DNA of 64,000 nucleotides from Blastocatellia bacterium (GTDB lineage Bacteria > Acidobacteriota > Blastocatellia > UBA7656): positions 928,001 through 992,000 of the forward strand of contig CAVXWP010000001.1 in NCBI GenBank assembly GCA_963765495.1. Direction: 5' to 3'. The position numbers and the translations under genes were made by a program. The notes below the pieces were generated by a model. That model worked only from the letters and a program-made list of their open reading frames with translations, was not told where the DNA came from and made no database searches. Shown piece after piece: positions 3,329 through 59,694 of the stretch. The stretch's first letter is position 1. The number at the start of each line of letters is the position of its first letter.

Positions 3329-3431
3329 GCGATTCGTAACTCGTGATTCGTGATTCGTGACCGTCAGGCAGATAGCCTGTTAAAGATAGTTTTCAAGTCT
3401 GGTAAATCACGAATCACGAGTTACGAATCAC
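3329..3431. repeat. Family A palindromic element (GTGATTC heptamer arms plus conserved core), copy 1
   Basis: 25-bp perfect inverted arms gattcgtaactcgtgattcgtgatt / aatcacgaatcacgagttacgaatc around core CAGGCAG-N7-GTTAAAGA-N5-TTCAAG. Confidence 0.85.
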
Positions 3432-3435
3432 TCAA

Positions 3436-3738
3436 CTACATCATGCCAAGCTGGAGCCTGGCCGCTTCAGTCATCTTGTCCGTGCACCAGGGGGGATCCC
3501 ATACCAGTTCGACGCTTACGTCGCTGACTCCGGGTATGGCCTGTATTCTTGACTCCACTTCGGTGGGCAACGATCCGGCTACCGGACAGTTGGGCGCAGT
3601 GAGAGTCATCTTTATATCTACCTTGCCCGCAGGTTCTACGTTGATGTCGTAGATCAATCCCAGATCATAAATATTGACTGGAATCTCCGGGTCAAAGACC
3701 GTCGAAAGCGCTTCAATGACCTGTGCTTCTAAAACCAT
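3436..3738 (-). CDS. sufT: DUF59 Fe-S cluster maturation protein (SufT-like)
   Basis: DPEIPVNIYDLGLIY, MTLTAPNCP, VWDPPW; SUF context. Confidence 0.88.
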   Translation of the reverse strand: MVLEAQVIEALSTVFDPEIPVNIYDLGLIYDINVEPAGKVDIKMTLTAPNCPVAGSLPTEVESRIQAIPGVSDVSVELVWDPPWCTDKMTEAARLQLGMM

Positions 3739-3746
3739 CTCGCTCC

Positions 3747-4199
3747 TTATTCCGTCGATACGACTTCATCGTTCCCCTTGAGCGTGGAAAGCAATGTGTG
3801 CCACGCTAAGGTAGCGCACTTGACGCGCGTCGGATATTCGCTGACGCCTGAAAAGACGGCCAGCTTGCCGAGCTTGGCAGTCTCTGCAACTACCATCGGG
3901 TCTCCGGTCACTAGATCATGAAATCGCTCGAAGATCGCTTCGACTTCCTCGCGCGATTTGCCTTTGAGGCTTTCAGTCATCAGCGAAGCCGAAGCCGTCG
4001 AGATAGCGCATCCCGCTCCCTTGAAACTTATATCGGCGACTTTGCCATCTTCCATCTTCATGTAGATAGTCACCCTGTCGCCGCAAAGCGGATTATATCC
4101 TTCGGCCTTGCGCGTGGCATCTTCCATCACGTGAAAATTGCGTGGCTTCCTTGTGTGGTCAAGAATGACCTCCTGATAAAGGTCTTGCACGTCAGACAT
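3747..4199 (-). CDS. sufU: SufU / NifU-like sulfur-acceptor scaffold
   Basis: LYQEVILDH, NPLCGD, GCAISTAS, RVKCATL. Confidence 0.92.
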   Translation of the reverse strand: MSDVQDLYQEVILDHTRKPRNFHVMEDATRKAEGYNPLCGDRVTIYMKMEDGKVADISFKGAGCAISTASASLMTESLKGKSREEVEAIFERFHDLVTGDPMVVAETAKLGKLAVFSGVSEYPTRVKCATLAWHTLLSTLKGNDEVVSTE

Positions 4200-7589: not shown

Positions 7590-7620
7590 TCGTTTTCCTT
7601 TTTAATCTCTACGGGTTTAA

Positions 7621-9072: not shown

Positions 9073-9104
9073 CTCTCCTGTACAGTCAGCACTTCCTCTT
9101 CTGC

Positions 9105-9132
9105 CGAAATCTCAAATTTCAAATTTGAGATC
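9105..9132. repeat. Family E short (A/T)TCTCAAA/TTTCAAA heptamer relic
   Basis: gaaatctcaaatttcaaatttgagatc; similar runs at 22380, 42365, 53355 and 58257. Confidence 0.5.
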
Positions 9133-9133
9133 C

Positions 9134-9836: not shown

Positions 9837-9896
9837 GGAAGCATCCGCCAAAACGAAAAGACAACTCTATACTATATTGAAAAGGACGGCAACCCG

Positions 9897-11610: not shown

Positions 11611-11721
11611 GTGATGAGTTCACGTGATGCGTAAAGAGTGATTTGTGATCGGTCTGGCTGCAAAGTGTCTAAAACTTGCTGCCTACCTGAAAGTCACGAA
11701 TCACGAATCACTCTTTACGCA
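11611..11721. repeat. Family A element, copy 2 (core on minus strand)
   Basis: Arms tgcgtaaagagtgatttgtgat / atcacgaatcactctttacgca; reverse-complemented core CAGGTAG-N7-GTTTTAGA-N5-TGCAGC. Confidence 0.8.
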
Positions 11722-12998: not shown

Positions 12999-13124
12999 AT
13001 CTGATGCGTGGGATGTGATACGTGATACGTGATGCATAATTGGCCCGGCTTGCAAATAGGCTTAAATCTGCGGCCTGCCTGAAAGTTACGGATCGCTCTT
13101 CACGGATCACGCATCAGATCACGC
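12999..13124. repeat. Family A element, copy 3 (core on minus strand), between convergent genes
   Basis: Arms atctgatgcgtg / cacgcatcagat plus GTGATAC repeats; reverse-complemented core CAGGCAG-N7-ATTTAAGC-N5-TGCAAG. Confidence 0.78.
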
Positions 13125-15015
13125 TCACTCAAGGAGTTTGCCTTTTTCGTCGGGCATTAAAATCTGTCGGTGGACCCAGAGCGGGGCCATGCCGTTTGAG
13201 AGCAGCCGGTCGTGGAACGAGGAGAGCGAAAACTCCTCTTTGCGGTAGCGTCTGTAATCTTCGCGCAGTTTCAGCAGGGCAAGCCGTCCGATAGCGCCCG
13301 CTATGGCCATTGGCTTTATTGCGCACCGCTCGGCTTCGGCGCGTGCTGCCGCATCGGATATGTATGCGTTCTGTTTGAGAAAGATGATTGCCTGATCGAG
13401 CGTCAGCCCTTCGACATGCTCTCGTACGCCGACGATGAGGCGGCTCAGACTTAGCAGCGTGTCGGCAAGCATCGCAAGTCTCATCTTCGGGTCATCGCTT
13501 GCGAAGCCCTCTTCGATCATCATCTGTTCGGCATATTCGGCCCAGCCCTCGACGAAACACGCGTTCCAAAATACATATGACTTGCGTACCAGAGAAGGGT
13601 TCTTCCCTAAGGTTGCAAGCTGCGTGAAACGGCCCGGGTATAGATCGCGAACAGGTGCCGTTCGAGACTGAGAATAATTCGTGCCGGGCAAGGCCGATTG
13701 CTTTGAGCCCGTCTCTCTCACCAGATAGCGCGCGGGCAGGGGCCGAGACTCAAAAGGGCCGGCCATCCACAGACTCGTGGCGGAGTCTGACACGGAATCA
13801 GGGGCCTCGGCTACGACCGGGTCGGGGATTGCGGGCAGGCTCACAACCTGCTTTTCATTGATGAAATTTTTTAGCGTATCAAGCTGCTTTTGTACTTCAT
13901 CAACAAGAGTGCCCGGTTTCAGATGCTCGGTTTCAAGCGTGGCCAGGACCGATTGGGCATCGCGTTTAGGGTCAATCAAAGCGGCGGTCTTGCGGAACGC
14001 TTCCTGTGTTTTGAGCAACTCGCGGGAAGCTATCCTGAGCAGCGCATCCGAAGGCACGTCTACGCCCGCTTCGTATTTGAGTTTTGCTTCAAGGCTTTCT
14101 CTGCCGATTGCAAAGCCTGATTTTGAATCGGGAGCGAGTTGCTCAAGATGCTTGATGTATTTCGCTATCGCGGTGGCCGCAAGAGAGGTTGACTTTTTGA
14201 ACTCGGCCTGGAGCTTTGCATCCTTGACGGTTGCGAAAGCCCTGGGCAATTCGGTTTGAACCAGTATCAAGGCGCTTTTAAAACTTTCGATGCCTTTCTT
14301 CAGAAAAGACCGGAGGAGGGGCCTGCACACCTGCGCGAGCGGCATCAATAAGGTGCGGAATCTGTTTCTGTTTGGCAATCACGTGACGGAGACGCGAATC
14401 GATCGGCGCGTACTCGAACATCTCTACGCGCAAAAGCCCGGCGATTATGGGGTAGCTGTAAATCGCCGGATCGCGGGTATAGCTTTTAACCTGTTCCAAC
14501 TCCACAAGCCGCGCCTTCATATTCGACGCGATGATCTGGTAATCGAAAAGCTCGGAAAAACTCAATTGAAGCGGGGGAATCTTTTCCAGCCGCGCTTGAA
14601 ACTTCCTGATGGCGGCTGCCTCATCGGCAAGCGCCGGGGCGCTGTAATCTTCGAGTCGGCTCTCCCAGGCGTGCATCCCGCTCATCGAGGCAAGCAGAGG
14701 GTGACGCGAATAGGTGTCTGCCAGATACTCATCTATGAATTTTGGGAAATCCGCGGCAGCCAACTCGCCCCTCTCCTGCGACTGCTGAAAGCAGTAGGCA
14801 GCAGGCAGTAAGCAGTAGGCAGCAAGCAGCAGGGAGAGGGCAAATGCAAAGGCGCGCAAGCCGAAAGTCTGAAGCCGGAGATTGCATATGAACAGGTGGT
14901 ACCCGCCTCCGGCACTACTGCCGCTTGCTGTCTTCTGTCTGTCGTTTATTTGATAACTGCCTACTGCATACTGCCTACTGCTTACTTTTTTTTGCCTGCT
15001 GCCTACTATTTTCAT
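13125..15015 (-). pseudogene. DUF885-family protein split by a 1-nt frameshift near 14304-14307
   Basis: ORF 14278..15123 has the N-terminal part (G.H.W..RLEDYS) and ORF 13125..14378 the C-terminal part (FVEGWAEYAEQMM, FHDRLL..G). Removing one T joins ...PPPVF-LKKGIESF. Confidence 0.75.
14791..15008. repeat. Family C element (GCAGTAG heptamer arms) inside the 5' end of the DUF885 gene
   Basis: gcagtaggcagcaggcagtaagcagtagg at 14791 and ataactgcctactgcatactgcctactgc near 14953. Confidence 0.75.
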
Positions 15016-15836
15016 CAGGTTTCCAATAATTCCTTGGCGCGATGAGTAGCCTTGACAACTGCTTTGATCAGGGTCACGCGCAGACCGCCTTCCTCCAGTT
15101 CGAGTATGCCGTCTATTGTGCATCCGGCCGGTGTTGTCACGGTGTCTTTGAGTTTAGCCGGATGCTCTTTCGTTTCCAGCACCATAGAACCTGCGCCGAC
15201 GACCGTTTGCGCGGCAAGCTCCGTAGCGACATCACGCGGAAGCCCGACCTTGACGCCCGCCTCGGCCAGCGCTTCGATTATGATGTAGATGTATGCAGGA
15301 CCGCTTGCCGACAGACCTGTTATCGCGTCCATGTGTTTTTCATCCGCGACCACCGTGCGGCCTACCGCATCGAAGATGAACTTGGCAAGCGCCAGGTGTT
15401 CATGCGAGGCGTTTGTCCCCGGCGAGATTCCCGTCATGCCTTTTTTTAGCTGACAGGGAGTATTTGGCATAGCCCGCACCACGGGAACCGGCAAGGGCAT
15501 GTATTTTTCTATAAAGGTTGTGCTGACGCTTGCGGCGACCGAGATCAATAGCTGCGACGGCCTGAGCAATCCGCTGATTTCCGACAGCACGTGAGGAACG
15601 GTCTGGGGCTTCAGACTCAGAATGATTATATCTGCCGATTCGGCGGCCATCGAATTTGAGAGCGTTCCCGTGACGCCGAACCGGTCTCGCAACTGATCGA
15701 GCCTCGCCTGATGGCCCGCCGTGACTATCACGTTACGCATCTCGATGACGCCCGCTTCGAGCAATCCGTTTATCAATGTCTCGCCCAGCTTACCTGCGCC
15801 AAGCACCGCGAGTTTTTTGTCCTTTAACATAGTCAT
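15015..15836 (-). CDS. proC: Pyrroline-5-carboxylate reductase
   Basis: GAGKLG, RAMPNTP, SASGPAY, VTTPAGCT; start placed at 15836 (GGAGAG RBS). Confidence 0.95.
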   Translation of the reverse strand: MTMLKDKKLAVLGAGKLGETLINGLLEAGVIEMRNVIVTAGHQARLDQLRDRFGVTGTLSNSMAAESADIIILSLKPQTVPHVLSEISGLLRPSQLLISVAASVSTTFIEKYMPLPVPVVRAMPNTPCQLKKGMTGISPGTNASHEHLALAKFIFDAVGRTVVADEKHMDAITGLSASGPAYIYIIIEALAEAGVKVGLPRDVATELAAQTVVGAGSMVLETKEHPAKLKDTVTTPAGCTIDGILELEEGGLRVTLIKAVVKATHRAKELLET

Positions 15837-15870
15837 CTCTCCAATTATGTCACAAGTCAGGCATCTTATC

Positions 15871-15957
15871 AGGGGCCGGGGGCCGGGGACCAGGGGCCGG
15901 GGATCAGTGGCCGGTGGTCGGTGGTCGGTGATCACTGGTCACTGGCCCCCGGCCCCC
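15871..15957. repeat. Family D element (GGGGCCG heptamer arms) between divergent proC and cysK
   Basis: aggggccgggggccggggaccaggggccgg ... ctggcccccggcccc, with internal GGTGGTC heptamers. Confidence 0.75.
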
Positions 15958-15999
15958 GCGCATGCTAGGCTAATGGTCGCCCGATGGAAGGAGCTATAG

Positions 16000-16950
16000 A
16001 TGTCGCGACGGCCGAAGATTTGTAACAACATACTCGAGACCATAGGCCATACGCCGCTTGTGCGGCTCAACCGCCTGCCGGGAGCCGAATCGGCCGAAGT
16101 GCTTGTGAAGATGGAATCGTTCAACCCCATGCGCAGCATCAAGGACCGCATCGCCTGTTCGATGATCGAAGCGGCCGAGCGCGAGGGGGAAATTACTCCG
16201 GGCAGGACCACGATCATCGAACCGACAAGCGGTAATACGGGGATCGGACTGGCTATGACCGCCGCCGCAAAGGGCTACCGCCTGGTGCTGACCATGCCCG
16301 ATTCGATGACCGTAGAGCGCACAAGGGTGTTGCGAGCGCTCGGGGCCGAGATCGTTCTCACCCCCGACGCCGAAGGGATGGAAGGGGCGATCAGAAAGGC
16401 CGAAGAACTCCTCGACAATTTGCCCGAAGGTTATATGCCTCAGCAGTTTCTGAACCCTTCCAACCCGGCCATCCACAGGTGCACGACGGCTCACGAGATC
16501 ATCGAAGACACCGATGCAAAGCTCGATGCGTTTGTTGCGGGGGTTGGGACGGGAGGAACTATCACGGGTGTGGGGGAAGTGCTAAAAGAGCGATTGAAGG
16601 ATGTCAGACTGATTGCAGTCGAGCCAAAAGATTCGGCAGTGCTGTCGGGTGGCCCGGCTGCCCCTCATCTGATTCAGGGAATAGGCGCGGGGTTCGTGCC
16701 GGGTGTGCTCAATACGGAGATCATAGACCGCATCATCCCGGTCGAATACGAAGACGCGAAGCGGATCGCTCGCCGACTCGCACGCGAAGAGGGCATTCTT
16801 TGCGGCATCTCTTCGGGCGCTATTTGCTGGGCGGCGCTGCTCGTAGGACGAGAAATGGGCATAGGCAAACGCGTGGTCGCGGTGCTGCCTGATCTTGGCG
16901 AGCGATACCTGTCTACGGATGTTTATGCCTTTGATGAAGAGGAGCTTTAG
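16000..16950 (+). CDS. cysK: Cysteine synthase A (O-acetylserine sulfhydrylase)
   Basis: [42 protein letters not shown]. Confidence 0.93.
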
Positions 16951-17038
16951 TGATGCGTGATGCGTGACCTCCGGGCAGGCCGCCTGTTAAAGACAACGTG
17001 CAAGCCTTGTAATTCACGCATCACGCATCACGTATCAC
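16950..17038. repeat. Family A element, copy 4
   Basis: gtgatgcgtgatgcgtga / tcacgcatcacgcatcac; core CGGGCAG-N7-GTTAAAGA-N5-TGCAAG. Confidence 0.85.
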
Positions 17039-17049
17039 TATTCATTCCA

Positions 17050-22487: not shown

Positions 22488-23864
22488 ATGGCAAAATCCA
22501 AAGGCCCGAAAACTGTTTATGTATGCCGTCAGTGCGGCTCTCAACAGCCAAAATGGATGGGCAAATGCCCCGATTGCGGCGAGTGGAACGGACTGGTCGA
22601 AGAACGCTCCACGCCCTCACGACCCGAGACCGGGCGCGGCGGGTTGTTTCGCATGCGCGAGGTTGTCCCTCTTGCCTACCAGGACATAGAGAGCCAGGAC
22701 GATTCGCGTCAGCCCTCCGGCATAACCGAGTTCGACCGTGTGCTGGGCGGCGGCATCGTGCCCGGTTCGCTCGTCCTGATTGGCGGGGAGCCGGGTTGCG
22801 GAAAATCGACCCTTCTCACACAGGTTTCAAGCAAGCTCACCGAAACCTGGGGCAAAGTCCTTTATGTGTCGGGCGAGGAGAGCGAGCGCCAGATAAAGCT
22901 CAGAGGCGAGCGGCTGGGCATCAACCCGCAACACCTTTACCTGCTGCCCGAAACATGCCTGGAACGCATCTTTGAAGAGATAGACCGGCTCGACCCGCAG
23001 GCCATCGTAGTCGATTCCGTGCAGACGGTCTTTTCCATGAATCTGGAATCTGCGCCCGGCTCCGTTTCGCAGGTGCGCGAGGTGGCCGGGCAATTCCTGA
23101 TGCTCGCCAAGAACCGCGCCATCCCGGTATTTCTGATCGGGCACGTCACAAAGGAAGGAACGATTGCGGGGCCGAAGGCGCTCGAACACATAGTCGATAC
23201 GGTGCTCTATTTCGAAGGCGAGCGCCATCACAATCACCGCATCATCCGGGCGGTCAAAAACCGATTCGGCGCGGCAAACGAACTTGGGGTCTTCGAGATG
23301 ACCGGCCACGGCCTTGAGCCTGTTCCAAACCCGTCGGGCCTTTTCTTAAATGAGCGTCCGCTCGGGGTTTCAGGCTCGATTGTGACCGCCTCGATGGAAG
23401 GGACCCGGCCTCTGCTTGTCGAATTGCAGGCGCTCGTCACCGAAAATAAATACGGCACGGGACGGCGAATGACTCAGGGCGTAGACGCAAACCGCGTGGC
23501 GCTTTTGATGGCGATGCTCGAAAAACGGGTGGGCATGAACCTGCTGGGTGATGACGTATTTGTAAACGTAGCGGGTGGAATGACGATAGATGAACCGGCG
23601 GCTGACCTCGGCATAGTGGTCGCGATAGCTTCGAGTTATCGCAATCTGGCCGTAGACGAGCGCGCCGCCGTCTTTGGCGAAGTGGGGCTTGCGGGCGAAG
23701 TGCGCGCGACCTCGCAGGCATCGGTTCGGGTGAGAGAAGCCTATGCTATGGGCTTTCGTCGATGCATAATCCCGCAGGGAAACCTGGTCGGGCTTGAATA
23801 TGACGACGGAATAGAGGTGATCGGCATACGCAACGTCGCCGATGCTCTCGATGCAGTATTCTGA
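22488..23864 (+). CDS. radA: DNA repair protein RadA/Sms
   Basis: C4 zinc finger, GEPGCGKST, KNRFG motif, Lon-like C-terminus. Confidence 0.97.
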   Translation: MAKSKGPKTVYVCRQCGSQQPKWMGKCPDCGEWNGLVEERSTPSRPETGRGGLFRMREVVPLAYQDIESQDDSRQPSGITEFDRVLGGGIVPGSLVLIGGEPGCGKSTLLTQVSSKLTETWGKVLYVSGEESERQIKLRGERLGINPQHLYLLPETCLERIFEEIDRLDPQAIVVDSVQTVFSMNLESAPGSVSQVREVAGQFLMLAKNRAIPVFLIGHVTKEGTIAGPKALEHIVDTVLYFEGERHHNHRIIRAVKNRFGAANELGVFEMTGHGLEPVPNPSGLFLNERPLGVSGSIVTASMEGTRPLLVELQALVTENKYGTGRRMTQGVDANRVALLMAMLEKRVGMNLLGDDVFVNVAGGMTIDEPAADLGIVVAIASSYRNLAVDERAAVFGEVGLAGEVRATSQASVRVREAYAMGFRRCIIPQGNLVGLEYDDGIEVIGIRNVADALDAVF

Positions 23865-24300
23865 TTTTAGATTTTGGATTTTGGATTTTGGATTCTCACT
23901 TTAGGTAGCGCTATGACTGAACAGGAATTCAAAGACCGCACGAAAGCGTTAGCACTGAGAGTCGTAAGGCTGATAAATGCCTTACCAAGAAACCAAGCGG
24001 CAGAAGTCATTGGAAAGCAGTTGCTTCGTTCCGCCACATCGGTTGGGGCAAATTATCGTGCAGCTTGCCGAGGGAAATCTGCTGCTGATGTAATTAGCAA
24101 ACTCTGTATCGTTGAAGAAGAAGCAGATGAATCTCTATATTGGATGGAACTTCTGATTGAGGCAGAAATTATTCCCAGAACTAAACTTGTGAATTTAATG
24201 TCAGAGACCAATGAGATAATTGCTATGGTTGTTTCGTCAATTAAGACTCTTCGTTCGAATCAACTGCGAAATCTAAAATCTAAAATCTAAAATCCAAAAT
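23863..24300. mobile_element. Four-helix-bundle cassette bounded by inverted ATTTT(A/G)G heptamer arrays
   Basis: gattttagattttggattttggattttggatt (23863-23894) and aatctaaaatctaaaatctaaaatccaaaat (24270-24300) enclose an AT-rich ORF; mobility is inferred. Confidence 0.6.
23913..24290 (+). CDS. Four helix bundle protein (TIGR02436 / 23S rRNA IVP / Avd-like superfamily)
   Basis: KQLLRSATSVGANYRAACR.KS..D...KL.IVEEEADES.YW.ELL. Confidence 0.9.
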   Translation: MTEQEFKDRTKALALRVVRLINALPRNQAAEVIGKQLLRSATSVGANYRAACRGKSAADVISKLCIVEEEADESLYWMELLIEAEIIPRTKLVNLMSETNEIIAMVVSSIKTLRSNQLRNLKSKI

Positions 24301-24565: not shown

Positions 24566-24613
24566 TATCGCGTGAGGGGGCCGATTGGCGCACGATGCGC
24601 TATCGCACGGCGC

Positions 24614-24750
24614 GGGGCCGGGGGGCGGGGGCCGGTAGATTGTGGCTTGTACGAATCTGATGCCTGTTGCCGGGGTCATGATGGTGCAGTTCGATTTAGA
24701 CCGATAAGTAGCAGGGTAAACCGGCCCCTGACCCCCGGCCCCCGGCCCCT
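24614..24750. repeat. Family D element, copy 2
   Basis: ggggccggggggcgggggccggt ... accggcccctgacccccggcccccggcccct around a spacer of about 80 nt. Confidence 0.78.
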
Positions 24751-26819: not shown

Positions 26820-27314
26820 ATGAGCGAACCCTATCGCATAGGCACGGGCTATGACATTCACCGGCTGGTTGCCGGGCGCAGGCTTGTGCTCGGAGGGCTT
26901 GAGATACCGTTTGAAAAAGGACTGCTCGGCCATTCTGATTCCGACGTGCTCACACACGCGCTTTGCGATGCGCTGCTTGGGGCGGCCGCACTCGGCGACA
27001 TCGGCACTCATTTCCCCGATAGCGACCCTCGATTCAAAGGCGCATCGAGCCTTGACCTGCTCGCCCGCGTAGTCGCGCTTATCGCCGAGCGCGGCCTTCG
27101 AGTGGCGAATGTAGACGCGCAAGTGCTGGCCGAACGTCCAAAGCTTGCGCCTTACATCCCGGCGATGCGAAAACTTCTGGCCGATATTCTGAAGGTTGAT
27201 ATAGACCGTGTGAGCATAAAGGCGAAAACCAACGAAGGGCTTGACTCCATCGGCCGGGGCGAAGCGATGGCCGCGCAGGCCGTGGCACTCTTGGCAGTAG
27301 GCAGTAGGCAGTAG
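26820..27314 (+). CDS. ispF: 2-C-methyl-D-erythritol 2,4-cyclodiphosphate synthase
   Basis: RIGTGYDIH, GHSDSDV, GDIGTHFP, KAKTNEGL. Confidence 0.95.
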   Translation: MSEPYRIGTGYDIHRLVAGRRLVLGGLEIPFEKGLLGHSDSDVLTHALCDALLGAAALGDIGTHFPDSDPRFKGASSLDLLARVVALIAERGLRVANVDAQVLAERPKLAPYIPAMRKLLADILKVDIDRVSIKAKTNEGLDSIGRGEAMAAQAVALLAVGSRQ

Positions 27315-27460
27315 GCAGTTGAGTAAGGCTAACTATCAGTCTAATTGCAACTATATAATCGGGCGAATAGAAATAGACCACGGATGACGCGGATCGGGCG
27401 GATTTACGCGGATCTGATCATGGCTTCATAATAACTGCCTACTGCTTACTGCCTACTGCC
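27294..27460. repeat. Composite element: family C arms enclosing a family B half element
   Basis: gcagtaggcagtaggcagtaggcagtt ... gaccacggatgacgcggatcgggcggat ... aactgcctactgcttactgcctactgc. Confidence 0.8.
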
Positions 27461-27462
27461 AC

Positions 27463-31265: not shown

Positions 31266-31299
31266 CTGATTGAGATGAATTTGAACGAAAGGCGAATAG

Positions 31300-31403
31300 A
31301 AATAGGCCACGGATGACGCGGATTAGACGGATCAACACGGATTAAATCATATCAGGTTCAGATCCGTGTAAATCCGTCGCATCCGCGTCATCCGTGGCCT
31401 ATT
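31300..31403. repeat. Family B element, full palindrome
   Basis: 23-bp perfect arms aataggccacggatgacgcggat / atccgcgtcatccgtggcctatt. Confidence 0.85.
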
Positions 31404-31436: not shown

Positions 31437-33413
31437 ATGCATCGTCAAGTCCGCTTCGCGTTCTGGTCGCTCGCTGTTTGCCTTTTAACGATTGCCTGCG
31501 CCGCTGCTCAGGATAAAGCGAGCCTTGCTCATCCTCTTGACCCGCTCAGCAAGGAAGAGATCACCTCGGCGGTCGAAGTGTTGAAATCGGGCGGCAAGGT
31601 GAATGACGCGAGTCGCTTCGTTATGATCGCGCTGAACGAGCCGCCAAAAGAAGAAGTGATCAACTTCAAGCCGGGCGCCGCGATGCGACGCGAAGCTTCC
31701 GTCGTGGTCTATGAACGAGAGGCGAATAAGACTTTCGAGGGCGTGGTAGACCTGAAGAAGAAAACTGTTCTCGCGTGGCGAGAGGTCCCCGGTGTTCAGC
31801 CTTCGGCGTTGATCGAAGAATTCTTTTTCGTCCCCGGTCTTGTCCGATCTAACCCCGGGTGGCAGGAGGCCATGAAAAAACGCGGCATCACCGATTTTGA
31901 AAACGTGCAGTTGGATGCGTGGTCGGCAGGGAATTTCGGTTTCCCGGATGAAGAGGGCGTAAGAGTAGTCAGGGCTGTAGCGTATTACAGGGGCAAGTCC
32001 ACCAATCCTTATGCGCGGCCCATCGAAGGCGTAGTTGCCTATGTCAATATGAACACAAAGAAGGTCTTCAAGGTGGTTGACACGGGCGTCGTGCCGGTCT
32101 CGAAAGCGAACGGCGATTTTGACGAGGTGACAGTGGGCAAGCTCAGAGAAGCGCCCAGGGATTTGCAGATAGTTCAACCGCAGGGGGCGAGTTTCGAGGT
32201 ACGGGGCAACGAGGTTCGGTGGCAGAAATGGCGGTTCCGCTACACCCTGCACCCCCGCGAGGGGCTTGTGCTTTATACGGTGGGCTACGAGGACGAAGGC
32301 AAAGTGCGAAGCGTTCTCTATCGCGCTTCGCTTTCCGAGATGGTGGTGCCTTACGGCGATCCTGGCACGGGCTGGTTCTTCCGCAACGCATTCGACGAGG
32401 GCGAATTCGGAGTGGGGCGCGGGGCCCTGACGCTTGAACCGGGAACCGATTATTTGAGCAACGCTACGCTGTTTGACGCGGTCTTTGCGGGCGATACCGG
32501 AAGCGCATACAGTGTCCCTCGCGCGGTCGCGCTTTATGAAAGAGACGGCGGTATATTGTGGAAGCACGTTGACTACATTTCGCGCCGTAATGAATCGAGA
32601 AGGGCGCGGGAACTGGTGCTGTCTTATGTTGCCAACGTAGGCAACTACGAATACGGGTTTGACTGGGTCTTTCATCAGGACGGCACGCTTGAGATGGAAG
32701 TATTGCTGACCGGCATCATGGCGGCAAAGGGCGTGATGTCGGATTCAGGCTCACCCGAAGATCACGAAAGCGCGCACGGGCACCTCGTAGCCGATAACGT
32801 AATGGCGGTTCATCATCAGCATTTCTTCAATTTCAGACTCGATATGGATGTCGAAGGCCAGTCGAACAGTATAGTCGAGATGAACACTCAGGCGCTTCCG
32901 GCAGGGCGCGACAATCCCTACAACAACGCGTTCACTATGAAAGAAACGCCGCTTGCAAAAGAGAAAGACGCGCAACGAGTGCTCAGCCTTGAAGCCAGCC
33001 GCAAGTGGAAGATCATCAACCCTTCGATTAGAAATTCGCTTGGTCAGCCCGTCGGATACATGCTTGTTCCAGGCGAAAACTCTATACCTTTTGCGGCGGC
33101 AAGCGCGCAGGTGAGCAAACGCGCAGGCTTTATGAAATCTCATCTCTGGGTAACGCCTTACAATGCAACTGAAATGCACGCGGCGGGCGAATACGTCAAT
33201 CAAAGCAAGGGAGGCGACGGATTGCCCCGATGGACCAGCGCCAACCGCTCTATCGAGAACAGAGATATAGTCGTGTGGTACACGATGGGCATCACTCACA
33301 TTCCGCGCCCGGAAGAGTGGCCCGTCATGCCCGTGCATAAAGCCGGGTTCAAGCTGATGCCAAACGGTTTTTTTGCGCGCAACCCCGCGCTCGATGTGCC
33401 GAAACCGAAATAG
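31437..33413 (+). CDS. tynA: Copper/TPQ primary amine oxidase, exported
   Basis: HPLDPL, GNYEY (TPQ consensus), HHQHFF and THIPRPEEWPVMP copper ligands; signal peptide. Confidence 0.92.
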   Translation: MHRQVRFAFWSLAVCLLTIACAAAQDKASLAHPLDPLSKEEITSAVEVLKSGGKVNDASRFVMIALNEPPKEEVINFKPGAAMRREASVVVYEREANKTFEGVVDLKKKTVLAWREVPGVQPSALIEEFFFVPGLVRSNPGWQEAMKKRGITDFENVQLDAWSAGNFGFPDEEGVRVVRAVAYYRGKSTNPYARPIEGVVAYVNMNTKKVFKVVDTGVVPVSKANGDFDEVTVGKLREAPRDLQIVQPQGASFEVRGNEVRWQKWRFRYTLHPREGLVLYTVGYEDEGKVRSVLYRASLSEMVVPYGDPGTGWFFRNAFDEGEFGVGRGALTLEPGTDYLSNATLFDAVFAGDTGSAYSVPRAVALYERDGGILWKHVDYISRRNESRRARELVLSYVANVGNYEYGFDWVFHQDGTLEMEVLLTGIMAAKGVMSDSGSPEDHESAHGHLVADNVMAVHHQHFFNFRLDMDVEGQSNSIVEMNTQALPAGRDNPYNNAFTMKETPLAKEKDAQRVLSLEASRKWKIINPSIRNSLGQPVGYMLVPGENSIPFAAASAQVSKRAGFMKSHLWVTPYNATEMHAAGEYVNQSKGGDGLPRWTSANRSIENRDIVVWYTMGITHIPRPEEWPVMPVHKAGFKLMPNGFFARNPALDVPKPK

Positions 33414-33838: not shown

Positions 33839-33931
33839 GTGATTCGTGATTCGTAATTCGTGACTATCAGGCAGGTCACAGGTTCAGGACGACTTGCAAA
33901 TCTGCTAAATCACACATCACGCATCACAATC
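33839..33931. repeat. Family A element, copy 5
   Basis: gtgattcgtgattcgtaattcgtga / tcacacatcacgcatcac; core CAGGCAG-N7-GTTCAGGA-N5-TGCAAA. Confidence 0.82.
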
Positions 33932-35718: not shown

Positions 35719-37029
35719 ATGAGCGCGCTGCTAAGAAAACGCATCTTGCTTTATATGGTTCTGGCAGGGCTGATGATGCCCGGTCTGATCGCGTGCGCAG
35801 GCGTCAGCCAGTCAAACGACATGATCGGCAACGCCGCGCCTCCGAGTGATAAAAGAGACACTATGGAAGAGACACAAAAGAGACCCGCAACAGTGCAGGT
35901 TGATGCGCGTCTGGTTTCGGCCAATGCGAAATTCGGGCTCGATCTTTTCAAGACACTTGCCAAAACAAGCGCCGGGAAAAATGTCTTTATCTCTCCGTCA
36001 AGCGTCGGCCTTGCGCTGGCCATGACCTACAACGGTGCGGAAGGCGAAACCCGACAGGCGATGGCCCGAACGCTCGCGCTTCAGGGGATCAGCCTCGAAG
36101 AAGTGAATCAGGCTTACGCTCAGTTGAAATCGTCGCTTGCAAGCCCCGACCCGAAGGTGAAACTCGATGTCGCCAACTCGCTCTGGGCAAATAACAGCGT
36201 GATGTTCAAGCCGGATTTCATCAACCGAAATAAAGAATATTACGGAGCCGAAGTTGCTGAACTGGACTTTGGCGACCCCGGCGCTATATCGAGGATAAAC
36301 TCCTGGGTCAGTAAGAACACGGGCGGAAAGATAGAAAAGATCATCGACCACATCGAACCAGATGCCGTCATGTTTTTGATCAACGCGATCTATTTCAAGG
36401 GATCGTGGAGCGTCGAATTTGACAAGGACAACACGAAAGACGATTTCTTTACCGCAGGCACCGGCACCCGCAAAAAGATGCCCATGATGTCGCAGTCGGG
36501 CAAGTTCCGCTACTTCGAGGAGAAGAATTTTCAGGCTATCAGTCTGCCTTACGGCGAAGGCCGCGTGAGCATGTATATCTTCCTTCCCAGAGAGGGGTTG
36601 AGCCTGGCGGATTTCATCAAAAACCTGACCGCCGAACAATGGGATTCGTGGATGTCGGAGTTTCAGAAAACCAGAGGCGATATAGTTATGCCGCGCTACC
36701 GGCTGGAGTATGAAACGAGCCTCAACGACGCGCTCAAGGCCCTTGGCATGGGCATAGCATTTGCGCCGGATCGGGCGAATTTCTCAAATATGATCTCTCA
36801 GAAAGATGGAAACGCCTTTATAAATGAGGTCAAACACAAGACCTTTTTAGAGGTAAATGAAGAAGGCACGGAAGCCGCCGCCGCGACATCGGTCGGCATC
36901 TCGGTAACTTCCTTGCAGGTAGAATCGCCTCCATTCCGAATGGTGGTCGATCATCCGTTCTTCTGCGCGATCAGAGATAACGACACCGGGACCGTGTTGT
37001 TTATGGGAGCCGTAACAGACCCCCAATAA
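35719..37029 (+). CDS. Serpin (probable lipoprotein)
   Basis: NVFISP.S, NAIYFKG.W, hinge EEGTEAAAAT, DHPFF; LIAC lipobox-like motif. Confidence 0.93.
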   Translation: MSALLRKRILLYMVLAGLMMPGLIACAGVSQSNDMIGNAAPPSDKRDTMEETQKRPATVQVDARLVSANAKFGLDLFKTLAKTSAGKNVFISPSSVGLALAMTYNGAEGETRQAMARTLALQGISLEEVNQAYAQLKSSLASPDPKVKLDVANSLWANNSVMFKPDFINRNKEYYGAEVAELDFGDPGAISRINSWVSKNTGGKIEKIIDHIEPDAVMFLINAIYFKGSWSVEFDKDNTKDDFFTAGTGTRKKMPMMSQSGKFRYFEEKNFQAISLPYGEGRVSMYIFLPREGLSLADFIKNLTAEQWDSWMSEFQKTRGDIVMPRYRLEYETSLNDALKALGMGIAFAPDRANFSNMISQKDGNAFINEVKHKTFLEVNEEGTEAAAATSVGISVTSLQVESPPFRMVVDHPFFCAIRDNDTGTVLFMGAVTDPQ

Positions 37030-45300: not shown

Positions 45301-45678
45301 TTCTTCACAGCCACTTCTATGATCGGGTTTATCGCGGGCGCAGGTATAGTGGTGCGCAATTCGATCATACTCGTAGATTTTATAGAGCTGCGACTCAATC
45401 AAGGCATGCCTCTGGCAGAGGCGGTAATTGACGCAGGCGCTGTGCGCTTTCGCCCGATGATGCTGACGGCAGCCGCGGTGATCGCAGGCTCGGCTGTGAT
45501 ACTGTTCGACCCGATCTTTCAAGGGCTTGCAATTTCGCTTATGGCCGGTGAGATCGCTTCGCTCATGCTGTCACGCATGACGGTGCCTGTGCTCTACTAT
45601 CTGAGCGAGCGAAAAAGGCTGGAACTGCCCGCGACCCCGCCTGCGGTGACAAAAGAAAGTCAAGCGGTTGGCGGTTGA
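42400..45678 (+). CDS. RND efflux permease (AcrB/CusA superfamily)
   Basis: [40 protein letters not shown]. Confidence 0.93.
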
Positions 45679-45680
45679 TA

Positions 45681-45969
45681 ACAGTAAGCAGTAGGCAGTT
45701 GAGTAAAGACAATCATTGGTCAAAAGGCAACTGCATAATTGGAGAAGTAAGAATAGGCCGGGACGGGCGCGGATCGGGCGGATTTACACGGATTAGATCA
45801 TAAAGAGTCAGATCCGCGTATATCCGCCGCATCCGCGTCATCCGCGGTCTATTTCGAGTGTTCTAACCTGCGTGTTGAAAATCTTTATGATTCTACGAAT
45901 TCGACTGAAAAGATTCGGTATTACACGGATTGGCTCATGGTTTCAAAATAACTGCCTACTGCTTACTGT
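45681..45969. repeat. Composite element: family C arms enclosing a full family B palindrome
   Basis: cagtaagcagtaggcagtt ... aataggccgggacgggcgcggat / atccgcgtcatccgcggtctatt ... aactgcctactgcttactg. Confidence 0.8.
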
Positions 45970-47240
45970 TGTGAAGCAATTTGTGCCGTCTTTAGTTTAT
46001 CGAGTGCGCGCAATGTCTCTTGCCAGTCGTCTTTGTCCTTTCTGGTCGTAATGGGCGCGCTCGGGTTCCCGAAAAAGCTCAGTATGTTTTCGCGCAGTTC
46101 GGGCGTGAGGCCCTCGAATTCGTTGTCTGCGAGTTTTCTGACAAGCTCGGAATATGTATCGTCGGCCAGTTTGTATTCGCCCGCTCGCGTAGGTTCTCCC
46201 GTATCAAAATCCATATTCTTCAGATCGAGGCGGCCTTGCTTCACCGAGTCGAGCGCGGCGCGGTAACGTTCGAGCGTCAGGTTGAAGCTCTTCATAAACA
46301 TCTTTTCTGTTTCGGGTGTCGGCGGTTTGAAGGCGATGGCTTTGAACGGGCCTATCTTGGGCATTATGCGAAAGACGAAAGCCGTAGCCTTGGCAAAGAC
46401 GCCCGGCTTTTCGTATTCGTCGCCCCACTCTTTTTCGTAGCTTGCGCGAGAGAGGTTATAGAGGAATTTTTCGCGCGTGATGCCGGGATTCGATTTTACT
46501 ATCTCGTCTTTTTTCAACTCCCACGCTATGCGGGTCGCCTCTGGAATCAGCGTGCTCACAGCGCGGCGATACGATCCGATAGCGATGTCTACGCTTGTGA
46601 ATACCTCTTTCATCTCCAGGCCGTAGGTCTTTTTGAAGGCGCGTTCCAGCACCGGTTTTGAGACCTTAAACCCTATGAAATCGTGATAGGCTTCCGGGGC
46701 GTAACGTCCCTGGGCCACCTGCAATACGTCAAACCCAAATTCGACTTTGATGTGCGCCGACGGGTCGTTCTCGTAGGTCACTTCGCTGCCGTACTCACGC
46801 CGCAGCTTGGGATAGGCCACCGGAACCGCGCGGTTCACGGCTACCGGGTGGCCGCTGTTGTCAGCCATGTAGTGCGCGAGCGCGCCAAGCGCAAATGCGT
46901 ATTCGTTGAGGTCTTCGGATTCGTCCAGCAGGTTTTCCACGAAATCGCCGCTCCGCACATAATGCGCGAGATCGGTAAAGAACTTGCTCCCAAACGGATA
47001 ATATCCCATGTCTTGAATGATCGCCCCGCCGTAGGCATAGGCGTGCGCCTCGCGTAATTGCTCTTTGGTTGCGCTCGGGAAACGTTTCAGCAGGAGCGGC
47101 TCTAATGATTTCTCCCAGACGGTATCGATTATTGCCTGATGAGTCAGAACGGAATATCCGAACGATGTTTGAGATATGAGAAAAACGAGCGCGAGCGTTG
47201 TGAGCACCTGCGCAGCCTTGCGGACGGGAAAGCTTATCAT
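45963..47240 (-). CDS. Zinc-dependent phospholipase C/P1-nuclease-like family protein, exported
   Basis: Signal peptide then YSVLTH; QDMGYYP, HY.RSGDF, AHY.AD..GH, H..VEFGFD. Confidence 0.75.
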   Translation of the reverse strand: MISFPVRKAAQVLTTLALVFLISQTSFGYSVLTHQAIIDTVWEKSLEPLLLKRFPSATKEQLREAHAYAYGGAIIQDMGYYPFGSKFFTDLAHYVRSGDFVENLLDESEDLNEYAFALGALAHYMADNSGHPVAVNRAVPVAYPKLRREYGSEVTYENDPSAHIKVEFGFDVLQVAQGRYAPEAYHDFIGFKVSKPVLERAFKKTYGLEMKEVFTSVDIAIGSYRRAVSTLIPEATRIAWELKKDEIVKSNPGITREKFLYNLSRASYEKEWGDEYEKPGVFAKATAFVFRIMPKIGPFKAIAFKPPTPETEKMFMKSFNLTLERYRAALDSVKQGRLDLKNMDFDTGEPTRAGEYKLADDTYSELVRKLADNEFEGLTPELRENILSFFGNPSAPITTRKDKDDWQETLRALDKLKTAQIASQQ

Positions 47241-52419: not shown

Positions 52420-52420
52420 T

Positions 52421-53320
52421 ATGCTGGCTAAGAGAATCATCCCATGTCTTGACGTAGATCGCGGTCGCGTGGTCAAGGGTATTCGCTTTGTTGATCTGAT
52501 TGATGCCGGAGACCCCGTGGAGCAGGCACGTCGCTATGACCGCGAGGGCGCTGACGAGCTTGTCTTTCTCGACATCACCGCATCATCCGAGAGCCGCCAG
52601 ATCGTTCGCGACATGGTTCGGCGCGTGGCCGATTCCGTCTTTATCCCTTTCACGGTAGGCGGCGGCATCCGCACAATCGAAGACATCCGCTACCTGCTGG
52701 CATCGGGCGCAGATAAGGTTTCGCTAAACACGGCGGCGATCAATAACCCTTCGATAATCACCGAAGGCGCAAGAGCTTTTGGCTCTCAGGCCATGGTCGT
52801 GGCTATAGACGCCCGGCGCAGTCAGGGGCCAGCTTCGCAGGGGCCGGGGGCCGGGGGCCGGGGGTCGGTAACAAATGTAAGGATAGAATCTGAGGAAAAT
52901 AGTGAAGGATTAGAAGCGTCGCCCAGAACCGGCCCCCGGCCCCTGGCCCCCGGCCCCTGCGAAGTTTACACCCACGGCGGGCGGACACCTGCGGGGCTTG
53001 ATGCAATTGAGTGGGCGAAGAAGGCGGAACAACTCGGGGCCGGAGAGATACTTTTGACAAGCATGGACGCCGACGGCACGCGCGACGGCTACGATCTGGA
53101 GCTTACTCGGGCGATTTCAGAAGCGGTATCAATACCCGTGATTGCATCGGGCGGTGCCGGTACGCTTGAACATCTGCGCGAGGCGCTGGACGAAGGCAAG
53201 GCCTCGGCGGTGCTGGCGGCTTCGATATTTCATTTTGGCGAGTTTACTATCAGTCGGGCGAAAGAGTACCTGCAAAAGCGCGGACTGCCTGTCAGGCTGG
53301 TATCCGACCGCGAAACATAA
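52421..53320 (+). CDS. hisF: Imidazole glycerol phosphate synthase cyclase subunit, with an in-frame insertion of about 45 aa
   Basis: [38 protein letters not shown]. Confidence 0.96.
52833..52964. repeat. Family D element inserted in frame in hisF
   Basis: 37-bp inverted arms (52833-52869 / 52928-52964); the two mismatches are G-U compatible; purine-rich spacer. Confidence 0.9.
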
Positions 53321-53974: not shown

Positions 53975-54312
53975 TTGTCTCTCCGGGCAAGGCTGACTCC
54001 TGTGGCCGACCCTGTTTGAATCTCGTCCTTCTCTCAAAAGGTACCCTCGCCGTCATTGGCGTGCAAAGAATAATTGCCGGGCCGTCAAAAAAATTCTAAA
54101 CATTTTGCGATATTTTGCATTTCATCGTATCTTTATTCCGTCTCATTTTATTGAGTAAATCCATCGTCTCATCGAGACGTATTAGCAGGCCAGTTTTCAT
54201 GCGGAATCTGTTTCTGACGCGGATTGTCTGTAGCCTATGGCATTCAAACATCTTTAAGGTTTGCCCTTACTTCTTCGGGCAAGGCCGTTCTCAGGTTAGG
54301 AGGTTTGACGTT

Positions 54313-56631: not shown

Positions 56632-56638
56632 AAAAGAG

Positions 56639-56716
56639 TTTGACAGGATTAACAGGGTTTCAAAGAGTAAAAGAGAATCTTATTGATCCTCATCAAATCC
56701 GGTTAATCCTGTCAAA
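56639..56716. repeat. Palindromic element with ACAGGATT nonamer-type arms (terminator-like)
   Basis: tttgacaggattaacagg ... ccggttaatcctgtcaaa. Confidence 0.6.
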
Positions 56717-56800
56717 AAAATATCACCCCTCATCTCGTCATTCGCCTTTCGGGGAAATTACCTTTATATTTTTAGATCGAATGTAGACGGGCAAAAGCGA

Positions 56801-58204
56801 ATGGCAAAAGATCAGCAACGACAATCCTGGCAGGTGCCGGGCTATCTCGAAACCCACAACGGACGCCTCACGGTTGACGGGGTTGATTCGATAGAGCTTG
56901 CCGGACGGTACGGCACGCCACTTTACGTCTTTTCCGAGAAGCGAATCGCCGACAATACCCGCTCGCTTCGCCGCGAGGTCGAATCGGTCTATCCGCGCAT
57001 CAAGCTCTGTTATGCGGCAAAAGCGAATTCGAATATGGCGGTGCTTGCCATCGTGCATCAATCAGGCGGCGACATCGAAGTGAATTCGGGCGGCGAGTTG
57101 TTCAAGGCTATAAAGATAGGATTTCGACCCGATCAGATTGTCTTTAACGGCGTGTCAAAGACCGATGAAGAGATAGCCGCCGCCGCCCGGTACGGCATAC
57201 TTGCTATCAATGTGGATTCGCTTTTCGAGATAGATCAGGTGGCGCGGGTGGCTCGCAGCGTGGGTAAACGCGCTAATGTGGCGATTCGCATTGTGCCTGA
57301 GATAGTCACCCGCTCGCATATAGGGCTTCAAACCGGGTTGCTGTCGTCAAAGTTTGGCATCTCTCCTTCGCTCATCGAAGAGGCTTTCTCGCGGGCGCTT
57401 GCCGCCCCCGATTGCATAAACCTCGCGGGCGTTCACATCCACGTAGGCTCGCAGACGCCCGACCCGCAGCCCTTCGAACGGGCCTTTGCCGAGATGTGGC
57501 GCTTTCTGGTCGATATCTACAAAAGGACCGGCCACCGCCTGAGCCACATAAACATAGGCGGCGGTCTGCCGGTCGATTATTTGCCCCCGACTCCTATGGT
57601 AGACGAGATAGGCGAAACAGAACGCGACATGCTCTCGGCTCAACTGGACGCAAGCGAAGTCTTGCGCTCGGCGCTCAAACACGCGGCCGAAGAAGATGAA
57701 TCGGGTTTGCTCGACGGGTTGACCATAGTGATGGAGCCGGGCCGCCGGATAATCGGAGACACGGGTTTGCTCGTCACTCGCGTCTGCAATATTAAAGAGA
57801 GACCCGAAACGGGCGACACGTGGCTCTTAACCGATGCCGGGTATTCGCTGATGCTTTCGATCAACACATACAAATGGTATTACCATCTGATCTCGGCCAC
57901 GCGCGCAGGCAGCGAGCACCTGCGACCCTTCAAGGTAGCCGGTCCCCTTTGCGATTCGGGAGACGTTTATTTCGACATAGAACGTGGCACGAGGCTCCCC
58001 AATTATCGCCTTCTGCCCGAACAGACCGACGTAGGCGATGTGCTGGCTCTGTTAAACACAGGCGCATACGCGCTCGATCAGGCTTCGCAGTATAACGGGC
58101 GGCCCCGCCCGGCTGCGGTGATGATAAAAGAATCGGGCGAAGTGAGGGTCGCTCGCCGCCGCGAGACATACGAAGATTTGTACTCGTTCGACGAATGGGA
58201 ATGA
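56801..58204 (+). CDS. lysA: Diaminopimelate decarboxylase (PLP fold III)
   Basis: YGTPLYV, YAAKAN, SKFG, HIHVGSQ, IGGG, EPGR, GPLCDSGD, GAY, YNGRPRPA. Confidence 0.8.
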   Translation: MAKDQQRQSWQVPGYLETHNGRLTVDGVDSIELAGRYGTPLYVFSEKRIADNTRSLRREVESVYPRIKLCYAAKANSNMAVLAIVHQSGGDIEVNSGGELFKAIKIGFRPDQIVFNGVSKTDEEIAAAARYGILAINVDSLFEIDQVARVARSVGKRANVAIRIVPEIVTRSHIGLQTGLLSSKFGISPSLIEEAFSRALAAPDCINLAGVHIHVGSQTPDPQPFERAFAEMWRFLVDIYKRTGHRLSHINIGGGLPVDYLPPTPMVDEIGETERDMLSAQLDASEVLRSALKHAAEEDESGLLDGLTIVMEPGRRIIGDTGLLVTRVCNIKERPETGDTWLLTDAGYSLMLSINTYKWYYHLISATRAGSEHLRPFKVAGPLCDSGDVYFDIERGTRLPNYRLLPEQTDVGDVLALLNTGAYALDQASQYNGRPRPAAVMIKESGEVRVARRRETYEDLYSFDEWE

Positions 58205-58286
58205 GAAGCCTGAGAGTCTTGTCGATACGTCGAAAATTACCCTGGCTCGCCATCATCTGAGGTCTCAAATCTCAAACTCAAACCTT

Positions 58287-59492
58287 TCAGGCCGTGGGCT
58301 TGTCGGGCAGCGGTTGCGTGGCATGAAAATCTTCATACACGCGCAGGGTATAATCTTCTAGCAAGGACTCGACCCGTTGGGGGTCATAGCTTGCTACGAT
58401 AAGTCCTATGTGATGGTCTTTCTTTAAGCGCCAGACGATCTCCGGGTCATTGAATCGAGAGGTGTCGGGCTGCTGCTGACGGGCCAGCGAGATTAAAATG
58501 CCCGCATAGTCGTCCCGGTGTTCGGGCAGATGATAAGTGCGCTCGCCTCGACCTATTTCGATCTTAGCCCACTCGGCCCACATATTGATGCCGGTCGAGG
58601 CTTCGATGAGTTCCGCTATGTTTGCTCCGCCGACGCGAGAGGCCGTCTCAAGAAAATAGAGACGCCCGTCTTCGTGGCCCTTGATGAACTCCGTGTGTGT
58701 GACTCCGCGAACGAGCCCGAGCGCCGCGATCAATTCGCGGTTGGCCGTCTCAAGCACCTGCGCGTCTATCGATGCGCGAGAGATTTTCCGGCTTGTAAAG
58801 ATGCCGCCCCCGTGCGCCACCGCCATAGGCGGATGGCCGTATTTGTGCGGGACGGTGAAGACGACTTCGCGCTCGCTGACTATCGAATCGATGTGGAAGA
58901 TGTCACCCGGAATAAACCGTTCGAGAACATAAAAAGATTGGCGGTCGCCCAGTTCATCAAGTATCGGCCATAGCTGGTAAGAGCTTTCGATCTTCTTTAT
59001 GCCTATGGCCGAAGCCTCCGACCTCGGTTTGAGAACCCAGGGAGCAGGCACTCGTTCCATGTACTCGCGTACGCGGTCGTAGTTGAGGATGTGAACGAAT
59101 TCGGGCACGAGTATGCCGTGATCTTTCGCCTTCACGCGCATGGCGAGTTTGTCTCGAAAGTATCGAGCCGTCGTGTCGCCCATACCCGGAATGCGTAGAT
59201 GCTCTCTGAGTATCGCCGCCGTCTCTACGTCGTAATCATCGAGCGGCACGATTCGATCTATCGCGGTGGTGCGCGCCAGATAGCTTATGCCTTTTATAAT
59301 ATCGTCGCGGATCGAGATACTGGGCATGTAAAAGATTTCGTCTATAGATTCACGCGGCCACCGGGCTTCCTTTAGCGATTCCAGAGTCACAAGGATTACG
59401 CGACATCCCTGGCGTTTGCACTCTCTTAAAAATTCGTGGCCTTTCTCGTAGCTGGCCAGACAGAGAATAGTAATCGGTTGCTGATCGGACAC
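58287..59492 (-). CDS. ATP-grasp domain protein
   Basis: [34 protein letters not shown]. Confidence 0.82.
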
Positions 59493-59571
59493 CTCGCACG
59501 CTCCTTCAAAGAGGGAAATAGATTACGCTACGCGAGACGGGATTATACAGCATGAGTAGTTGGGACAGTAG

Positions 59572-59694
59572 CTGACGCGTTCACGCGATGCGTTCACGTG
59601 ATTCGTGATTCGTGATTCGTGATTCGTGACTTTCAGGCAGATCGTCTGTTGAAGATAAAATGTAAGACAGGTAGGTCACGGATCACGGATCACT
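59572..59694. repeat. Family A element, copy 6, overlapping the RND permease stop
   Basis: (gtgattc)x4 gtga / tcacggatcacggatcac; core CAGGCAG-N7-GTTGAAGA-N5-TGTAAG. Confidence 0.85.

Follow-up and report, generated by a model that had tools for sequence, protein, structure and literature searches.

What are the six short palindromes scattered between the protein genes of a 64,000-nucleotide (nt) stretch of a Blastocatellia bacterium genome (phylum Acidobacteriota; GenBank assembly GCA_963765495.1, contig CAVXWP010000001.1, positions 928,001 to 992,000; hereafter the window)? A previous sequence-only reading had grouped them as one family, here called family A (copies A1 to A6), and had described their arms as built from varying heptamer units (GTGATTC, GTGATGC, GTGATAC and GTGATCC); the places and strands of the six elements and the list of units were all borne out by our analysis. 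As for their nature, we consider it probable that family A is a mobile hairpin, non-autonomous and without a gene of its own, and one member of a class of heptamer-armed hairpins that includes the intervening sequences (IVSs) of 23S rRNA genes and the GGGAATC repeat pairs of Xanthomonas. The elements are 89-127 nt long and consist of a loop of 45-46 nt between arrays of GTGATNC units; they are short, non-coding, dispersed and bounded by terminal inverted repeats, as are MITEs (miniature inverted-repeat transposable elements). Folded on the mRNA strand, which for A3 was taken as that of the DUF885 gene, each of the six yields a hairpin (z from -2.6 to -10.0), and the orientation of the loop relative to transcription is mixed (antisense in three copies, sense in two, and one copy in a gap between convergent genes). 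No rRNA match was detected in the window, and the six copies all lie between protein genes.

The kinship of the copies is carried by their loops, which can be aligned with a single 1-nt gap (in A2). Over the 40-nt loop core the mean pairwise identity is 0.62 (range 0.50-0.70), and because all pairs fall between 50 and 70 % identity, the copies fit an old, star-like family in which each loop has diverged by about 20 % from the ancestor. A matrix derived from five loops, with the arms excluded, placed the left-out copy above all non-member positions on both strands in six of six leave-one-out trials (19.6-38.3 bits for the left-out copies compared with at most 16.0 bits for the next best position in the window). 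Scanning both strands with the loop matrix did not reveal a seventh copy in the window, nor does the window contain a stray tandem arm of GTGATNC units.

Searches beyond the window point to a repeat of narrow distribution. A pattern comprising the left arm and the first loop block, which matches four of the six copies exactly, retrieved 38 loci from the 185,579 genomes of GTDB r232, none of which continues into the family A loop, and the best loop score over 49 loci (618 kb) was 9.3 bits. The only heptamer-armed hairpin among the GTDB loci comes from a Steroidobacter metagenome-assembled genome (JAICPY010000009.1, 9970-10100); its GTGANTC arms are of a similar type but its loop is unrelated to that of family A, so that the passenger differs. 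Blastn comparisons of A6, A1 and A4 with plasmids and of A4 with phages yielded only short arm-like or chance matches, and the three such matches that were inspected are plain tandem arrays without a loop. At the protein level, the loop was considered and rejected as a coding remnant: a frame is open in five of the six copies, but there was no match among 275 candidates, nor any in 1.84 billion representatives (E 0.001) or in NCBIfam, although searches with a profile of 27 residues have little power. In P0122 (508 aa), the homolog of the aroD-aroE product, there is no extension into the element. Given that the GTDB, plasmid, phage and protein searches produced no loop match, family A appears to be lineage-specific within the GTDB genomes and the plasmid and phage collections searched.

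The arms, not the loop, are the constrained part of family A. They form 16-25 Watson-Crick pairs per copy, that is, a long stem of heptamers like that of the IVSs; with the register fixed at 18 pairs per copy, Watson-Crick pairs make up 89 of the 108 positions, compared with 66.5±5.0 under decay at the rate of the loop, and none of 20,000 simulations reached 89. Furthermore, private variants of the arm units are mirrored between the two arms of a copy, as judged from the longest exact arm-to-arm match (permutation P=0.008). The within-copy mirroring reported in the sequence-only reading is clear in A1, A2 and A4 and partial in A3, whereas A5 and A6 lack it. The suggestion made there, that the arms are subject to selection for pairing or to arm-to-arm copying, is thus supported by the over-paired arms, by the mirrored variants and by the relatives of HisF described below.

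The same architecture with other units recurs at at least eight further sites in the window, with family-specific loops and one nested insertion (Table 1). One of these hairpins, with GGGGCCG arms, is inserted in frame within hisF, the product of which has 299 aa as opposed to about 250 in relatives with an empty site. This palindrome takes in 7 nt of host coding sequence on the right, and its left side mirrors them, as though it had been copied from that host sequence. We compared 120 HisF homologs (P0001-P0120), 118 of which could be parsed, with repeat units deduced from the protein sequences rather than from DNA; the set includes a HisA-HisF fusion of 499 aa (P0002), and the named relatives belong to Blastocatellia or Acidobacteriota, with identities of about 73-78 %. 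The loop is empty in 11 of the 118 parsed relatives. In Blastocatellia-like HisF, this hot spot spans 8-96 residues, and its filling resembles heptamers or octamers of many units, translated and mirrored. Among the 92 long inserts (at least 20 residues), 25 score at least 14/18 as a heptamer array translated together with its reverse complement, a score reached by 1 of 92 best-of-three shuffles. In P0003, P0024 and P0063 the arm peptides differ but the loop that they enclose is related; P0081 represents the empty site. When crude unit classes, defined by regular expressions, were mapped on a neighbour-joining tree of HisF without support values, 51 changes were counted versus a shuffled mean of 76. 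Unit classes appear to be common to related proteins, yet their turnover seems to be frequent.

A second informative element, bounded by GATTTTR arms, encloses an entire gene (ATG at 23913, end at 24290) for a four-helix-bundle protein, which was assigned to PF05635 and TIGR02436, matched PDB entry 2RLD and fell into Atlas clusters of PF05635. This family is described as resembling Avd, a protein of diversity-generating retroelements (PMC10053308). Eight plasmid relatives of the gene were selected for taxonomic spread from the 32 records with a relative: at least two paired inverted heptamer units accompany five of the eight, compared with 1 of 400 control stretches, and six of the eight have heptamer tracts on both sides that score above every control. 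Our best reading of these data is that heptamer-armed hairpins constitute a widespread but unexplained class, the gene-carrying members of which enclose an Avd-like four-helix-bundle gene. A full-text literature search, with most subscription journals outside its range, found no paper that describes family A or unites empty heptamer hairpins with four-helix-bundle genes. On the Pseudanabaena plasmid NZ_CP112878.1, the four-helix-bundle gene is flanked on either side by repeat tracts and is located directly upstream of a 2.1-kb cas1 gene; other plasmid genes of this family (loci L039-L041 and L046) lie within restriction-modification-like or efflux operons.

The position of family A relative to genes is distinctive. 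The sequence-only reading placed all copies just after a stop codon, and A1, A2, A3 and A5 indeed begin 2, 4, 5 and 1 nt past the stop, respectively; A4, by contrast, overlaps the stop and A6 contains it. In A6, the AcrB-family gene runs into the arm, and its TGA, 16 nt inside the arm, is arm-derived. Three copies are located within operons, with the next start 11-20 nt downstream. Three GTGATNC units suffice to place a TGA in every frame of the leading arm, on either strand; more generally, 5' arms made of GTGATTC, GTGATGC or GCAGTAG units contain stops in all three frames, whereas GGGGCCG arms, those of the family found in frame in hisF, contain none. The placement behind stops may therefore follow, without any targeting mechanism, from the three-frame TGA combined with the need to spare the next ribosome-binding site; the same argument on stop-codon placement has been made for the TAACTGA repeats (PMC4679880). 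The earlier view that these hairpins are not simple terminators holds as well: intrinsic terminators combine a short GC-rich stem with a U-tract, and on the mRNA strand the U-tract is missing after five of the six hairpins, three copies being inside operons; only A4 has a T-rich run 3' of the stem, yet the operon resumes 11 nt later. A scan of A1-A4 that accepts only loops of 3-8 nt detected no promoter- or terminator-like site, and none of the six copies is in a divergent gap (5 of the 47 gaps are divergent, so that about 0.5 copies would be expected there by chance, which gives no case for an avoidance of such gaps).

How does family A compare with known repeats? The 23S rRNA IVS of Coxiella is reported to have a 28-bp terminal stem, variable GACAGAT heptamers and an open reading frame (ORF) for the S23p protein, and to be cleaved by RNase III, with its mobility left unexplained in that account (PMC4990558). 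The likeness to the IVSs that carry S23p (PF05635/TIGR02436) lies in the inverted-repeat stem (20-30 bp in IVSs as described), the variable number of heptamers and the passenger in the loop, and the window holds a PF05635 gene of its own within such arms. Unlike these IVSs, family A is not inserted in 23S rRNA, encodes no PF05635/TIGR02436 protein or any other ORF, has a 45-nt loop and a different unit, and resides behind the stops of protein genes; the comparison is made at the sequence level.

XCC0516 is presumably a four-helix-bundle protein of solved structure. According to one row of the supplement to Rehm et al. (2015; PMC4692102), its start is overlapped by a tract of GGGAATC, a Xanthomonas repeat that, like GGGGAYT of Nostoc, is described there as occurring in arrays of about four units near or overlapping stop codons; 70-75 convergent GGGAATC pairs per genome are reported, transcribed from either strand, with no link to transposases seen. 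Family A likewise consists of convergent heptamer arrays beside stop codons, but in that account the repeats are interpreted as G-quadruplex formers, and no homologous loop common to the pairs is given in its description of them (PMC4692102). Three consecutive G do not occur in the GTGATNC unit, whereas the GGGGCCG family of the window does have a G-tract unit. The STRR heptamers of cyanobacteria belong beside the TAACTGA repeats in this comparison. The latter are known from Beggiatoaceae, Cyanobacteria and Bacteroidetes as groups of 2-6 heptamers at gene boundaries (MacGregor 2015; PMC4679880) and share with family A, in their forward orientation, stops in three frames and an insertion limited to gene ends. 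They differ from it in that nearly all of those described are direct arrays upstream of starts, and inverted pairs around a shared loop do not figure in the description (PMC4679880). Finally, the NEMIS/Correia, ERIC, YPAL and Rickettsia RPE elements, as reviewed by Delihas (2008; PMC2229807), measure 100-200 nt, are co-transcribed with upstream genes into long stem-loop transcripts and, in the case of NEMIS, are RNase III substrates. In these MITE-like palindromes, forms with stops in all frames are described as intergenic and open forms as lying in frame within genes (PMC2229807), which parallels family A as compared with the hisF element; in contrast to them, the arms in the window are heptamer arrays that turn over, TA termini are not the rule and no target duplication was detected. 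Family A acts like a MITE- or IVS-type hairpin, yet departs from each named family in at least one of the features tested.

On these grounds, we propose that the ancestor of family A would have been a passenger loop of about 45 nt between inverted GTGATNC arrays and that, as the homology of the loops suggests, this single ancestor was copied long ago to many sites in both orientations. The loops would then have drifted, whereas the arms would have been renewed by slippage within the array, with their complementarity kept by arm-to-arm templated repair, by selection for a stem of 17-25 bp, or by both. Copies may persist behind stops because the leading arm provides a three-frame TGA and because, in a tight operon, this would be the one spot that leaves intact the coding sequence upstream as well as the ribosome-binding site downstream. 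Once co-transcribed, either orientation of the element would give an extended double-stranded stem, by analogy most likely a processing or stability site of the RNase III type. The Avd-like four-helix-bundle protein is the prime candidate for a factor that spreads the elements or renews their arms. A bolder, tentative possibility, to which we give clearly less credence, is that heptamer-armed hairpins form a so far unrecognised class of mobile elements that lack a transposase, in which the autonomous form carries the Avd-like protein only and RNA- or single-strand-templated synthesis writes mirror arms around any passenger. In that case, units could be exchanged without a change of site, and empty hairpins, family A among them, could be spread and maintained.

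Several alternative interpretations of family A have to be weighed. The loop might be a conserved structured signal in RNA or single-stranded DNA, in which an irregular continuation of the stem, bearing a tandem purine mismatch and, at its apex, a small hairpin, would be read on one strand only by an HUH-type or RNA-binding enzyme. RNAalifold indeed predicts an inner fold of 11 pairs, with 85 % of the cells paired on the loop strand versus 64 % on the other, and with the structure held fixed the pairing exceeds that in the decay simulations (P 0.003-0.018). This structure was, however, picked on the same data, and a conserved inner fold was rejected once every simulated alignment was given a newly predicted fold of its own (P=0.27-0.39) or the columns were permuted (P=0.30); covariation in the loop was equalled in 158-320 of 500 shuffles, and no Rfam match reached the gathering threshold in the window. 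We regard this explanation as unlikely.

It is slightly less probable again that family A is a plain MITE belonging to a DDE insertion sequence, or a repetitive extragenic palindrome (REP/REPIN) mobilised by a REP-associated tyrosine transposase (RAYT), with terminal repeats that happen to be heptamer arrays. A size of about 90-125 nt, terminal inverted repeats, dispersal in both orientations and location behind stops all fit the properties of MITEs as summarised in PMC2229807. On the other hand, target-site duplications were not found (see below), the termini vary among the copies, and the arms are tandem arrays. REP/REPIN elements are defined in PMC3733652 as stem-loops of 20-40 bp with an unpaired GTAG/CGTC tag, which the ends of family A lack; no transposase was recognised among the 55 ORFs scanned in the window, and the window likewise contains no RAYT. 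Moreover, relatives of HisF swap arm units around a kept loop, a turnover that a transposase-bound end would presumably not tolerate.

The protein-recognised site proposed in the sequence-only reading was based on a loop motif of conserved blocks at invariant spacing, with free positions between them. This motif is valid as a consensus but not as a fixed motif: CGTGAC is exact in five of the six copies, CAGGCAG in four, and GTT(A)AAGA and TGCAAG in two each, and no copy holds all four blocks. Nor are the positions between the blocks free, because only 26 of 72 spacer cells deviate from the consensus when 38 would be expected (P=5e-5). Simulated loops that decay uniformly from the consensus, at the rate seen in the data, match the real ones both in the variance of column rates (P=0.13-0.25) and in how conserved columns cluster (P=0.10-0.31). 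With the power that six copies afford, conservation of the core therefore does not exceed neutral decay, an outcome that the sequence-only reading had itself named as speaking against its proposal. We accordingly consider a host-selected site, presented by the hairpin for binding by a recombination, nucleoid or RNA-binding factor, the least plausible of these alternatives, despite the scarcity of indels (one versus 61 substitutions in six 46-nt loops) and the lower variability of three blocks picked post hoc (14 of 126 cells versus 26 of 72 in the spacers), given also the mixed orientation of the copies and the failure of all 38 GTDB hits to include the rest of the loop, which shows that it is not common to sequenced relatives. 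Two other candidates were discarded: an array of GANTC or GATC methylation sites, since the variable base of the unit disrupts either site, and a dif/Xer or attC site, the resemblance being limited to 6 nt, with no dyad.

Some observations weigh against a mobile, heptamer-armed hairpin as well. With blocks less variable than the spacers and with few indels, a weak constraint on the loop may exist, and six copies provide little power in simulations that assume a star phylogeny. Target-site duplication is not above chance: the best direct repeat, 4 nt, occurs in one of the six copies, and 665 of 1000 random positions give at least 4 nt under the identical search. In A4, a TA duplication is indistinguishable from an extension of the palindrome, and old copies may have lost the duplication signal. 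The mirroring of the arms, besides being absent from two of the six copies, is not significant by local alignment score (P=0.14) or fixed-register identity (P=0.2). G-U pairs show no preference for the mRNA strand over 11 elements (12 versus 8, with A5 and A6 running opposite), so that copying at the DNA level and selection at the RNA level are inseparable on this measure. Neither an empty orthologous site nor a gene-carrying version turned up for family A itself, its loop has no DNA similarity to the four-helix-bundle elements (z from -1.9 to 2.1 in 18 comparisons), and three of the eight plasmid four-helix-bundle genes fail the strict paired-unit test.

By itself, family A is a lineage-specific repeat, and its value is that it cleanly exemplifies a class covered piecemeal in the literature searched. 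It touches on the excess of 7-nt repeats in bacteria, the movement of rRNA intervening sequences and the role of orphan Avd-like four-helix-bundle proteins. The window shows empty, nested, in-frame and gene-carrying forms together, and mirrored units of differing sequence have apparently filled the HisF site anew, so that the mechanism is open to testing through comparative genomics and the mapping of RNA ends. In Acidobacteriota, heptamer hairpins change the ends of proteins, insert extra loops into enzymes and may cleave or stabilise the mRNAs of operons. If a transposase-free class exists, it would unite the 23S rRNA IVSs, the heptamer excess of bacteria, the Xanthomonas and cyanobacterial pairs and the HisF palindromes of Blastocatellia.

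Table 1. Family A and other armed hairpins in the window (positions are those of the window)
Feature	Position (strand)	Loop	Remarks
Family A, copy A1	3330..3433 (+)	3361-3406	Arm pairs 25/25, perfect; between an Fe-S assembly gene and rrf2, suf operon; loop antisense to mRNA
Family A, copy A2	11611..11720 (-)	11693-11649	Loop 1 base shorter than the others; 3' of a peptidase M49 gene; loop antisense to mRNA
Family A, copy A3	12999..13119 (-)	13085-13040	Arms the most degenerate of the six; flanked by convergent BON-domain and DUF885 genes
Family A, copy A4	16948..17040 (+)	16968-17013	GTGATGC arms; stop of a PALP-family (cysK-like) gene overlapped; aroD-aroE fusion follows; loop sense
Family A, copy A5	33839..33927 (+)	33864-33909	Arms decaying; 3' of a PGPGW gene, 17 nt 5' of a DUF885 gene; loop sense
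Family A, copy A6	59572..59698 (+)	59630-59675	Loop antisense; AcrB-family gene at 59683-62802 (-)
Gene-carrying element	23863..24300 (+)		Inverted GATTTTR heptamer arms; begins at the radA stop, outside any rRNA gene
GGGGCCG-armed hairpin	52833..52964 (+)		In frame within hisF, 52421-53320
GGGGCCG-armed hairpin	15862-15958		
GGGGCCG-armed hairpin	24609-24750		
GCAGTAG-armed hairpin	14782-15018		Directly 3' of the proC stop
GCAGTAG-armed hairpin	27292..27461 (+)		Provides the ispF stop codon
GCAGTAR-armed hairpin	45678..45972 (+)		Whole nonamer-armed hairpin nested in the loop
Nonamer-armed (ACACGGATT-like) hairpin	31299-31403		Complete, free
Nonamer-armed hairpin	45752-45855		Nested
Nonamer-armed hairpin	27362		Half copy
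Nonamer-armed hairpin	2380-2439		Half copy

Among the other families, the loop of the GCAGTAG-armed hairpin that ends ispF is homologous to that of the GCAGTAR-armed hairpin and contains half of a nonamer-armed element. The GCAGTAG-armed hairpin behind proC and the 5' end of a DUF885 gene overlap, and the hairpin seems to encode part of the signal-peptide-like N-terminus; this DUF885 gene (13125-15123, - strand) is broken across two reading frames near 14280-14380, by a true frameshift or a sequencing error. Of the two GGGGCCG-armed hairpins outside hisF, one is located in a divergent promoter gap and the other upstream of a PIN/TRAM gene, indicating that placement at stop codons is not general to every family. 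Blastn searches with the nonamer-armed element returned chance matches only; arms of this type presumably also flank GxxExxY genes. Small heptamer tracts of the TCAAAT type and short hairpins are found at gene boundaries at 9107, 22381, 42371 and 53366. The window also encodes a serpin (35719-37029) and a copper amine oxidase (31437-33413).

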